From assembly GCF_024223415.1 (NCBI RefSeq), contig NZ_CP100500.1: 64,000 nucleotides of DNA. One strand, 5' to 3'. The translations under genes were made by a program, and so were the position numbers. A model generated the notes under the pieces. It ran no database searches and was not told where the DNA came from. It worked only from the letters and a program-made list of their open reading frames with translations. The stretch is from Escherichia coli (GTDB lineage Bacteria; Pseudomonadota; Gammaproteobacteria; Enterobacterales; Enterobacteriaceae). Each line of letters opens with the position of its first letter. Positions within the stretch are counted from its first letter, which is position 1. Positions 1 to 31,042 of the stretch are shown piece after piece.

Positions 1-1404
1 GTGTCACTTTCGCTTTGGCAGCAGTGTCTTGCCCGATTGCAGGATGAGTTACCAGCCACAGAATTCAGTATGTGGATACGCCCATTGCAGGCGGAACTGA
101 GCGATAACACGCTGGCCCTGTACGCGCCAAACCGTTTTGTCCTCGATTGGGTACGGGACAAGTACCTTAATAATATCAATGGACTGCTAACCAGTTTCTG
201 CGGAGCGGATGCCCCACAGCTGCGTTTTGAAGTCGGCACCAAACCGGTGACGCAAACGCCACAAGCGGCAGTGACGAGCAACGTCGCGGCCCCTGCACAG
301 GTGGCGCAAACGCAGCCGCAACGTGCTGCGCCTTCTACGCGCTCAGGTTGGGATAACGTCCCGGCCCCGGCAGAACCGACCTATCGTTCTAACGTAAACG
401 TCAAACACACGTTTGATAACTTCGTTGAAGGTAAATCTAACCAACTGGCGCGCGCGGCGGCTCGCCAGGTGGCGGATAACCCTGGCGGTGCCTATAACCC
501 GTTGTTCCTTTATGGCGGCACGGGTCTGGGTAAAACTCACCTGCTGCATGCGGTGGGTAACGGCATTATGGCGCGCAAGCCGAATGCCAAAGTGGTTTAT
601 ATGCACTCCGAGCGCTTTGTTCAGGACATGGTTAAAGCCCTGCAAAACAACGCGATCGAAGAGTTTAAACGCTACTACCGTTCCGTAGATGCACTGCTGA
701 TCGACGATATTCAGTTTTTTGCTAATAAAGAACGATCTCAGGAAGAGTTTTTCCACACCTTCAACGCCCTGCTGGAAGGTAATCAACAGATCATTCTCAC
801 CTCGGATCGCTATCCGAAAGAGATCAACGGCGTTGAGGATCGTTTGAAATCCCGCTTCGGTTGGGGACTGACTGTGGCGATCGAACCGCCAGAGCTGGAA
901 ACCCGTGTGGCGATCCTGATGAAAAAGGCCGACGAAAACGACATTCGTTTGCCGGGCGAAGTGGCGTTCTTTATCGCCAAGCGTCTACGATCTAACGTAC
1001 GTGAGCTGGAAGGGGCGCTGAACCGCGTCATTGCCAATGCCAACTTTACCGGACGGGCGATCACCATCGACTTCGTGCGTGAGGCGCTGCGCGACTTGCT
1101 GGCATTGCAGGAAAAACTGGTCACCATCGACAATATTCAGAAGACGGTGGCGGAGTACTACAAGATCAAAGTCGCGGATCTCCTTTCCAAGCGTCGATCC
1201 CGCTCGGTGGCGCGTCCGCGCCAGATGGCGATGGCGCTGGCGAAAGAGCTGACTAACCACAGTCTGCCGGAGATTGGCGATGCGTTTGGTGGCCGTGACC
1301 ACACGACGGTGCTTCATGCCTGCCGTAAGATCGAGCAGTTGCGTGAAGAGAGCCACGATATCAAAGAAGATTTTTCAAATTTAATCAGAACATTGTCATC
1401 GTAA
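1..1404 (+). CDS. dnaA: Chromosomal replication initiator DnaA (467 aa, GTG start at window position 1)
   Basis: Translation has the AAA+ Walker A motif (GGTGLGKTH) and the C-terminal DNA-binding region typical of DnaA; followed by dnaN-recF-gyrB as in E. coli. Confidence 0.95.
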
Positions 1405-6046: not shown

Positions 6047-6145
6047 GCCTGATGCGCTACGCTTATCAGGCCTACGAAAATCTTGCAATGTATTGAATTT
6101 TCATGATTTTGTAGGCCGGATAAGGCGTTCACGCCGCATCCGGCA
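6047..6145. repeat. REP/BIME-type palindromic element (two REP-like palindromes)
   Basis: gcctgatgcgctacgcttatcaggcctac and gtaggccggataaggcgttcacgccgcatccggca match the enterobacterial REP pattern. Confidence 0.7.
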
Positions 6146-15669: not shown

Positions 15670-16002
15670 TCAGTTATCAGGCATTCTGGCCGGTGGAATA
15701 ACCGCATTGGTGGCTTGCGCGTTGGCTTCGCTTTTTTCAACGCGCGAGCGCACCGAGCTGTCTTTGCGGAACACATCCCACGGCAGTAAAAGCGTGTCCA
15801 TCACAGCGGTAAACGGCATATCGAGAATCGCCAGCGACTTAGTGCCCCAGTTGGTTTCATCGTCGCCAATCATGGTGGCGCTGGCGCGGGTGCCGGGATA
15901 CGTTCCTTCTTTCCCCCCGGTATGGGACATCACGCTGGAGCATCCTCCGAGTAATGTCATTCCGCTGCATATCATGAACGCTAACAACACATTTCTTATC
16001 AT
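15670..16002 (-). CDS. yidQ: Putative lipoprotein YidQ (110 aa)
   Basis: Signal peptide and lipobox (LLGGCSS) from MIRNVLLAF; the track ORF extends 25 codons upstream. Confidence 0.75.
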   Translation of the reverse strand: MIRNVLLAFMICSGMTLLGGCSSVMSHTGGKEGTYPGTRASATMIGDDETNWGTKSLAILDMPFTAVMDTLLLPWDVFRKDSSVRSRVEKSEANAQATNAVIPPARMPDN

Positions 16003-16176
16003 AATAAATTCATCTGTTGATCGTGGGTGTTGGCCTGATGAGTTATAGCGATCCCTTGCTGAAAATAACATCATCATTACGTCGCACTGTGGCGGCTATC
16101 GCACTTTAACGTTTCGTGCTGCCCCCTCAGTCTATGCAATAGACCATAAACTGCAAAAAAAAGTCCGCTGATAAGG

Positions 16177-16210
16177 CTTGAAAAGTTCATTTCCAGACCC
16201 ATTTTTACAT
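16177..16210 (+). promoter_or_regulatory. Sigma32 (heat-shock) promoter of ibpAB
   Basis: CTTGAAA (-35-like) at 16177-16183, 13-14 nt spacer, then CCCATTTTT (-10-like), matching the sigma32 consensus about 100 nt upstream of ibpA. Confidence 0.7.
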
Positions 16211-16307
16211 CGTAGCCGATGAGGACGCGCCTGATGGGTGTTCTGGCTACCTGACCTGTCCATTGTGGAAGGTCTTACATTCTCGCTGATTTCAGGAGCT
16301 ATTGATT

Positions 16308-16721
16308 ATGCGTAACTTTGATTTATCCCCGCTTTACCGTTCTGCTATTGGATTTGACCGTTTGTTTAACCACTTAGAAAACAACCAGAGCCAGAGTAAT
16401 GGCGGCTACCCTCCGTATAACGTTGAACTGGTAGACGAAAACCATTACCGCATTGCTATCGCTGTGGCTGGTTTTGCTGAGAGCGAACTGGAAATTACCG
16501 CCCAGGATAATCTGCTGGTGGTGAAAGGTGCTCATGCCGACGAACAAAAAGAGCGCACCTATCTGTACCAGGGCATCGCTGAACGCAACTTTGAACGCAA
16601 ATTCCAGTTAGCTGAGAACATTCATGTTCGTGGTGCTAACCTGGTAAATGGTTTGCTGTATATCGATCTCGAACGCGTGATTCCGGAAGCGAAAAAACCG
16701 CGCCGTATCGAAATCAACTAA
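16308..16721 (+). CDS. ibpA: Small heat shock protein IbpA (137 aa)
   Basis: Alpha-crystallin-domain translation [21 protein letters not shown]...; paralog pair with ibpB. Confidence 0.95.
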
Positions 16722-16832
16722 TTCCCTAAGGCCGCCTGGCGCGGCCTGACATCTCCATGCTCGCCGTCAGGGAGCATATGCGAATCTTCGGATTTGCAGG
16801 TACTTACTCGCTTCTTAGAAGGAGAAATGACT

Positions 16833-17261
16833 ATGCGTAACTTCGATTTATCCCCACTGATGCGTCAATGGATCGGTTTTGACAAACTGGCCAACGCACT
16901 GCAAAACGCCGGTGAAAGCCAGAGCTTCCCGCCGTACAACATTGAGAAAAGCGACGATAACCACTACCGCATTACCCTTGCGCTGGCAGGTTTCCGTCAG
17001 GAAGATTTAGAGATTCAACTGGAAGGTACGCGCCTGAGCGTAAAAGGCACGCCGGAGCAGCCAAAAGAAGAGAAAAAATGGCTGCATCAAGGGCTTATGA
17101 ATCAGCCATTTAGCCTGAGCTTTACGCTGGCTGAAAATATGGAAGTCTCTGGCGCAACTTTCGTAAACGGTTTACTGCATATTGATTTAATTCGTAATGA
17201 GCCTGAACCCATCGCAGCGCAGCGTATCGCTATCAGCGAACGTCCCGCGTTAAATAGCTAA
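16833..17261 (+). CDS. ibpB: Small heat shock protein IbpB (142 aa)
   Basis: Translation [24 protein letters not shown]... is a clear paralog of ibpA. Confidence 0.95.
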
Positions 17262-17277
17262 CTAGCTATTCTCTTTG

Positions 17278-17305
17278 CCCCGCCATTCTGGTGGGGCTTT
17301 TTTTG
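17278..17305 (+). terminator. Rho-independent terminator after ibpB
   Basis: gccccgccattctggtggggc hairpin followed by a T7 run. Confidence 0.7.
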
Positions 17306-17456
17306 TCTTTCTTCTTCAACAATGCGTTAAATTTCGACTGTTTAAGATATTTCGGCACGTTCTTTCCCGTGATAATGTGCGCTATAAGGCAAATCTGCTT
17401 CACCGATTCAGCCATAATCCGTAGCAATTAAAATGTTATCTCAAGAGAAATGGACG

Positions 17457-30861: not shown

Positions 30862-30967
30862 ATATTTGGACAAAACGCAAACTGTGATCGATACTCAACT
30901 ATGCACTAAATACGTCAAAATTCGTGCCGAAATTGCGCGTTCTGCGCGGAACACGTATACTTTCAGT

Positions 30968-31042
30968 GTTGACATAATACAGTGTGCTTTGCGGTTACCA
31001 GCCGCAGGCGACTGACGAAACCTCGCTCCGGCGGGGTTTTTT
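30968..31042 (+). ncRNA. istR: IstR-1 antitoxin sRNA (approximate ends; IstR-2 would start upstream, near 30.9 kb)
   Basis: TATACT -10-like hexamer at 30956-30961; the 5' region (30969-30994) is a near-repeat of 30711-30737, i.e. antisense to the tisAB leader about 105-130 nt upstream of the tisB start; T-run at about 31036-31042. Confidence 0.5.

Follow-up and report, generated by a model that had tools for sequence, protein, structure and literature searches.

The DNA upstream of the small heat-shock gene ibpA raises two questions: does this locus carry a heat-shock promoter followed by an RNA thermometer, and by what means would the leader between them and the gene control translation? We analyzed the locus within a 64-kb stretch of Escherichia coli DNA (the window), in which an original prediction had read a sigma32-type promoter and a candidate ROSE-like thermometer ahead of ibpA and had filed both as expected biology. 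That assessment was correct, as the element is known, already annotated textbook biology that is modelled by Rfam, annotated automatically by RefSeq and described in the literature. Taken as a whole, the region is almost certainly the native control region of the E. coli ibpAB operon, comprising a sigma32 promoter, a ROSE thermometer and autoregulation by IbpA. The practical value of the locus is that of a positive control, with a sigma32 promoter and a ROSE motif recognized from raw sequence and placed at exact coordinates, while the only forward-looking point of the region is a bulged-G hairpin design shared by the hairpins of the leader.

The identity of the locus is well established. Many complete E. 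coli chromosomes match positions 15900-17450 with 100% identity, and the region was found in 5419 of 5426 genomes. Over the 151 nt that span promoter and leader, 5382 of 5417 E. coli genomes show an identity of 99% or more. In identical E. coli the RefSeq annotation reads yidQ (minus strand), ibpA, ibpB and yidE, the gene downstream of the leader is named "small heat shock chaperone IbpA", and a RefSeq "ROSE" sequence_feature on the same leader maps to 16242-16314 of the window. The predicted identity of the downstream gene as ibpA is thereby confirmed. The ibpA coding sequence (16308-16721, plus strand) specifies a small heat-shock protein of 137 aa, and it is followed by ibpB (16833-17261, plus strand), an open reading frame paralogous to ibpA that is present both in the ORF list and in the RefSeq annotation. 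The operon ends at an intrinsic terminator at about 17277-17304 (plus strand), where a 9-bp GC-rich stem precedes a T run. In several E. coli chromosome records the coordinates of the leader equal those in the window or differ only slightly, for example 16170-16320, so the window probably represents the opening 64 kb of a chromosome assembly whose start was set near dnaA.

The classical sigma32 consensus is CTTGAAA-N13-15-CCCCATNT (Cowing 1985; Nonaka 2006). Measured against this consensus, the sequence CTTGAAA-N13-ACCCATTT upstream of ibpA agrees at 13 of the 14 specified positions. Its -35 element CTTGAAA (16177-16183, plus strand) is read directly from the sequence, and its -10 element ACCCATTT (16197-16206, plus strand) follows 13 nt after CTTGAAA and agrees with CCCCATNT at 6 of 7 specified positions. 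The original prediction had given the -10 string as CCCATTTTT, which occupies 16198-16206 and is separated from CTTGAAA by 14 nt. Within the window the pattern CTTGAA-N13-16-CCCAT occurs once as compared to 0.18 occurrences expected, and since 17 of 100 shuffled sequences also contain at least one match, the pattern in a single window is weak evidence on its own and is not significant. Orthologues supply the missing weight. A sigma32 motif scoring at least 12/14 is present in 92 of 115 orthologous upstream regions as opposed to about 1.6% of background windows, which were random windows taken from the same loci, and in almost every leader inspected the end of the motif falls 88-119 nt ahead of the ATG. 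The sigma32-type promoter stands as predicted in position and sequence, and its motif is conserved. That transcription from about 16212 is RpoH-dependent and heat-induced is drawn from the literature: a genomic-SELEX peak for RpoH covers the ibpA/yidQ spacer (PMC5493296), the ibpA mRNA is heat-induced (PMC9032294), and the 5' UTR of a published reporter begins gtagccgatg, which corresponds to G16212 (Table S1 of PMC10474464; as machine-read, this table has two bases fewer than the window sequence). Placed by this published UTR, the start stands 8 nt past the -10 element.

From this start the untranslated leader of ibpA runs for 96 nt (16212-16307, plus strand) and abuts the ATG at 16308, in good agreement with the leader of roughly 100 nt that had been predicted. 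Three hairpins can be drawn in it. Stem-loop 1 (SL1, 16212-16250), obtained with ViennaRNA and, in its upper helix, also with RNAalifold, has a folding energy of -18.5 kcal/mol at 37 C and a bulged G16229 in its upper part. Stem-loop 2 (SL2, 16253-16274), taken from the Rfam ROSE_2 structure, pairs GACCU-G-UCC with GGAAGGUC around a bulged G16258 at -10.2 kcal/mol. Stem-loop 3 (SL3, 16282-16298), the thermosensing hairpin, pairs CUC-G-CUG with CAGGAG as defined by the Rfam alignment and by covariation. Its pairs are C16282-G16298, U16283-A16297, C16284-G16296, C16286-G16295, U16287-A16294 and G16288-C16293, and G16285 stays unpaired according to the Rfam consensus, RNAalifold and the fold of the isolated hairpin alike. 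The anti-SD sequence UCGCU (16283-16287, bulged G16285) is consequently set opposite the Shine-Dalgarno sequence AGGAG (16294-16298). A CUCGCU-like element close to the Shine-Dalgarno sequence had been predicted, and CUCGCU is found at 16282-16287.

In an Rfam scan of the whole window, the plus-strand segment 16242-16314 matches ROSE_2 (RF01832) over the full model (positions 1-73 of 73), scoring 100.4 bits where the gathering score is 65, with E = 1e-21. The ROSE_2 consensus structure consists of two hairpins, SL2 and SL3, with the UCGCU-AGGAG pairing formed around the bulged G. Other family models gave little or nothing; ROSE_3 reached only 20.8 bits on the window (gathering score 43), and ROSE (RF00435) had no match in the window at E up to 10. 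The hallmark of ROSE elements is a U(U/C)GCU sequence whose imperfect pairing with the Shine-Dalgarno sequence leaves one G bulged out (PMC3669281; PMC11342760), and ROSE-like architectures contain two to four hairpins in about 60 to more than 100 nt (PMC10474464). The ibpA leader precedes a small heat-shock gene as its 5' UTR, it has the U(U/C)GCU-SD pairing and the bulged G, and its three hairpins in 96 nt fall within the architectural range. A reading of the minus strand was rejected, as it is the plus strand that carries the promoter, the Rfam match and the gene context; in folding the two strands are about equal (z = -2.4 for the reverse strand as compared to -2.1 for the plus strand), and the small minus-strand ORFs at 16077-16263 are mechanical calls only.

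Folding of the single sequence is a less informative guide. Between 20 and 50 C, SL1 and SL2 are robust while SL3 forms in some contexts only, and in isolation SL3 is marginal at -4.6 kcal/mol (37 C), the least stable of the three hairpins. In the minimum-energy structure of 16212-16320, SL3 is displaced by an alternative pairing. In the folding model the probability of a fully open AGGAG increases with temperature, with values of 0.0058 (25 C), 0.0086 (30 C) and 0.018 (42 C), which is about 3-fold from 25 to 42 C. At 30 C the energy needed to open the Shine-Dalgarno sequence is 2.9 kcal/mol as compared to a mean of 5.0 for shuffled upstream sequence, so the real leader is not higher. The comparison of folds at 30 and 42 C that had been suggested as a check thus decides neither for nor against a thermometer: SL1 and SL2 are stable and opening of the Shine-Dalgarno sequence increases, but the pairing of SL3 depends on the boundaries of the folded sequence. 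For the same reason, a lack of stable Shine-Dalgarno pairing in folding predictions, which had been named as the observation that would refute the thermometer, is a poor discriminator, as the probability of the canonical SL3 pairs ranges from 0.06 to 0.99 with the choice of boundaries. The thermodynamic numbers do not discriminate because the opening energy is shuffle-like, the minimum-energy structure is an alternative one and SL3 is boundary-dependent. The case for a thermometer rests instead on the family model, on covariation and on published experiments. As to the alternative fold, it joins the anti-SD CGC (16284-16286) to the codon-2 GCG (16310-16312) and adds a helix between 16292-16295 and 16302-16305. 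In a 109-nt context this fold is commoner at low temperature (0.71 at 25 C vs 0.43 at 45 C), and its second helix is visibly not conserved.

Homologous leaders were compared at 120 ibpA-type loci, which came from one genome per species and represent the alpha, beta and gamma classes of proteobacteria. They were located with a DNA pattern for the IbpA N-terminus that is independent of the leader sequence and in which ATGCG is fixed, and they span Enterobacterales, Aeromonas, Cellvibrionales, Oceanospirillales, Rhodobacterales, Hyphomicrobiales, Undibacterium and others. Among the 118 of these 120 loci with sufficient upstream sequence for motif scoring, 116 have U(U/C)GCU (T[TC]GCT) no more than 45 nt from the start codon, as compared to 9.8% of background windows. 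For 111 leaders we built ungapped blocks anchored on T[TC]GCT and on the AGG of the Shine-Dalgarno sequence, which makes the alignment independent of structure; a MAFFT alignment of 112 diverse leaders misplaced gaps 3' of the Shine-Dalgarno sequence in non-enterobacterial sequences and was replaced. The core pairs of SL3 are uninformative for covariation because the anchoring fixes them, and the flanking pairs carry the signal. The loop-closing pair of SL3 is paired in 98% of the leaders through five pair types (GC 51, CG 25, UG 11, UA 9, GU 8), and the pair below the core is paired in 92% through four types (CG 59, AU 33, GC 8, GU 2). When the register is shifted by 1-3 nt, the paired fractions are 0.21-0.72 and 0.00-0.54, respectively.

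A covariance model built from 59 Enterobacterales leaders and the Rfam structure, with 52 matches realigned, extends this result to SL2. In this alignment the cells of SL2 and SL3 are 94.3% paired, with compensatory changes in 11 of the 16 pairs; no shuffle out of 500 attained these values, and slid controls are 36-54% paired. Taken separately, SL2 has compensatory changes in 7 of 8 pairs with 96.9% of cells paired, and SL3 has 99% of cells paired. Support is weaker for the outer 2-bp helix that the Rfam model draws between 16278-79 and 16303-04, which is paired in only 64% of homologues. Additionally, RNAalifold applied to 31 full-length Enterobacterales leaders predicts upper SL1, SL2 and SL3, with changes on both sides in 5 pairs of the SL1 upper helix. 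The promoter motif, the SL1 upper helix and the pairings of SL2 and SL3 are all backed by comparison. With a full-length ROSE_2 match, covariation in homologues and a literature on the same element, the prediction of a ROSE-like ibpA thermometer is well supported.

Whether the promoter-like string and the hairpin could be a functionless chance resemblance can be judged from the same data. The frequency of the promoter pattern in shuffled sequence and the fold z-score of only -2.1 would suit such a reading. Against it are the Rfam E-value and a conservation across three proteobacterial classes that covers both the promoter and anti-SD motifs as well as the compensatory changes; the comparative data refute chance resemblance, and we assign it a negligible probability.

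Detection of more distant leaders was less complete. The enterobacterial covariance model (R1), run on 54 distant loci in a 100-source search, recovered 7 at E <= 0.01, and at E up to 10 it placed 28 at the expected position. In 14 distant ibpA loci (L002, L008, L012, L020, L021, L030, L033, L036, L037, L044, L047, L064, L069 and L097) no Rfam ROSE family reached its gathering threshold. These non-enterobacterial leaders carry U(U/C)GCU opposite the Shine-Dalgarno sequence yet fall below the Rfam ROSE thresholds, which indicates that the coverage of ROSE-like elements in Rfam is narrow.

Together these observations fit a mechanism of control in which the transcript start, the thermal response and IbpA binding are taken from the literature or inferred. 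RNA polymerase with sigma32 (RpoH) would initiate from CTTGAAA-N13-ACCCATTT at about G16212, and the leader would fold into two stable hairpins, SL1 and SL2, and a weak 3' hairpin, SL3. At low temperature SL3, with UCGCU and its bulged G16285, would pair imperfectly with AGGAG and limit binding of the 30S ribosome, while heat would melt SL3 and raise translation. According to published work, IbpA protein additionally binds its own leader and represses its own translation until aggregates titrate IbpA away. Experimental results in the literature agree with several of these steps. For example, a fusion of ibpA to bgaB exhibits a 4-fold induction from 25 to 42 C (PMC3669281), the leader has been described as containing three stem-loops with a strengthened SL3 abolishing expression (bioRxiv 10.1101/2020.04.20.050740), and binding of IbpA to the 5' UTR needs R93 (PMC10474464).

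One can also ask whether the hairpins do no more than stabilize the mRNA, as a 5' stem-loop acting against RNase E or 5'-end-dependent decay, and exert no translational control. SL1 is indeed very stable and begins at the extreme 5' end of the transcript, and protection from degradation has been named as a possible role of SL1 and SL2 (bioRxiv 10.1101/2020.04.20.050740). However, a role in mRNA stability leaves unexplained both the conservation and covariation of the U(U/C)GCU-SD pairing and the loss of expression when SL3 is strengthened, and we regard it as highly improbable as a full account of the leader.

A weightier alternative is that the leader serves mainly as an operator for IbpA, which would sense aggregation through titration of the repressor, with melting of the RNA having a minor role. 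Reporters with this 5' UTR are repressed by IbpA in vivo and in purified translation, and the RNA is bound (PMC10410725; bioRxiv 10.1101/2020.04.20.050740; PMC10474464). Either weakening or strengthening of SL1 or SL2 relieves repression by endogenous IbpA (bioRxiv 10.1101/2020.04.20.050740), and as changes in both directions have this effect, stability does not seem to be all that counts. In the folding model, heat alters the accessibility of the Shine-Dalgarno sequence only modestly, by about 2-3 fold, SL1 and SL2 have invariant nucleotides and conserved bulged Gs that exceed the needs of simple stabilizing hairpins, and the IbpA encoded here has both Y34 and R93. However, a positive-control reporter fusion exhibited 4-fold thermal induction from a temperature-independent promoter (PMC3669281), and the U(U/C)GCU motif with a bulged-G hairpin is the hallmark of ROSE thermometers, one such hairpin from P. 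stuartii oppF having sufficed alone for thermoregulation (PMC11342760). Additionally, we found no mapping of the IbpA binding site on the RNA in the accessible literature. That the leader acts mainly as an operator is a real but minority possibility. Control by IbpA is better viewed as a layer that is complementary to the thermometer and not as an exclusive alternative to it.

The three hairpins of the leader follow one design, in which the 5' arm is rich in pyrimidines, has one G bulged out and faces a purine-rich, SD-like 3' arm. The top of SL1 contains the module CGC-G-CC / GG-GUG with bulged G16229 (16226-16240), SL2 contains CCU-G-UCC / GGA-AGG with bulged G16258 (16255-16272), and SL3 contains CUC-G-CUG / CAG-GAG with bulged G16285 (16282-16298). 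This arrangement is widespread: among 114 distinct ibpA-type leaders of alpha-, beta- and gamma-proteobacteria, 82 contain three or more bulged-G hairpins in the 100 nt before the ATG (exactly three in 81), as compared to 0.6% of dinucleotide shuffles and about 1% of background windows. Equivalent hairpins with a bulged A, C or U occur at background frequency, and a bulged-G hairpin is found at the SL2 position in 97 of 111 leaders. We put forward, as a long shot, that the leader is not a thermometer hairpin with two stabilizing hairpins ahead of it but consists of three iterations of one bulged-G module, perhaps the unit that oligomeric IbpA recognizes in self-repression. Such a unit would explain why both weaker and stronger SL1 or SL2 relieve repression. 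Our search of the accessible literature yielded no statement of a three-module design, which the primary 2009 paper, outside that scope, may describe, and no definition of an RNA recognition rule for IbpA repression. If true, this idea would provide a testable RNA determinant for the mechanism by which a chaperone acts as a translational repressor.

The leader can be placed among thermometers that have already been described. It is the same element as the E. coli ibpA ROSE-like thermometer (RF01832; Waldminghaus et al. 2009 via PMC3669281), from which it differs in nothing. ROSE1 (RF00435) likewise resides in a small heat-shock 5' UTR with several hairpins, of which the 3'-proximal one masks the Shine-Dalgarno sequence with U(U/C)GCU and a bulged G (PMC3669281; PMC11342760). 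Nonetheless, the RF00435 model has no match here, sequence similarity is limited to the motif, and ROSE1 has four hairpins where the E. coli leader has three. The promoter context of ROSE1 also differs from that of E. coli ibpA. The short ROSE-like thermometers of Pseudomonas are located ahead of ibpA, use the same anti-SD motif and provide a similar 4-6 fold induction (PMC3669281), but they have only two hairpins as compared to three in the 96-nt E. coli leader. The FourU element of Salmonella agsA shares a sigma32-driven small heat-shock gene and an SD-masking hairpin that is melted by heat, and it differs in placing four U residues opposite the Shine-Dalgarno sequence where E. coli ibpA has UCGCU with a bulged G. 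In the ibpA leader the strand that pairs with the Shine-Dalgarno sequence is CUCGCUG, and the sole run of U residues, AUUU at 16289-16292, is in the loop. In the rpoH mRNA thermometer, too, the structure of the mRNA makes translation sensitive to heat, and rpoH shares with ibpA its repression by IbpA (PMC10410725). In contrast to the ibpA leader, the rpoH structure reaches into the coding region, masks the start codon and is without the ROSE motif (PMC10410725).

The intergenic leader between ibpA and ibpB (16722-16832, plus strand), characterized by folding and hairpin search, has features of its own. At 16807-16824 it contains a ROSE-like SD hairpin, CUC-G-CUUC / GAAGGAG, and at 16760-16774 another hairpin with a bulged G, the motif seen in the ibpA leader. 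Against Rfam ROSE_2 the ibpB leader scores 15.2 bits (E = 6), which is below threshold, and automatic annotation misses this hairpin. A separate ibpB thermometer has been reported (PMC10410725; bioRxiv 10.1101/2020.04.20.050740), with which the predicted ibpB-leader hairpin would agree. A further observation concerns another genome, in which a second match to the enterobacterial model is found about 440 nt downstream of the ibpA start (locus L091, 7758-7825, minus strand, E = 0.0017); this second site is probably an ibpA-type ROSE element ahead of the ibpB of that genome.

Several minor observations were also made in the window. A perfect 7-bp GC-rich hairpin, AGGCCGC / GCGGCCU, is present at 16729-16747, 8 nt past the ibpA stop and without a U tract, and could be a processing or stabilizing element between ibpA and ibpB. 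In the 3' part of ibpA, TGGTAAATGGTTTGCT (16642-16657) is an exact fit to the sigma54 -24/-12 pattern TGGYA-N6-TTGCW, a pattern about as frequent in the window as expected (20 occurrences vs 19, with one mismatch allowed). A sigma54 promoter for ibpB has been reported. Further Rfam matches above the gathering score in the window are istR at 30913-31042 (plus strand, 150 bits), AsdA (antisense of dnaA) at 511-591 (minus strand, 102 bits), IS102 sRNA at 63398-63634 (minus strand, 73 bits) and ES036 at 6068-6110 (minus strand, 45 bits).
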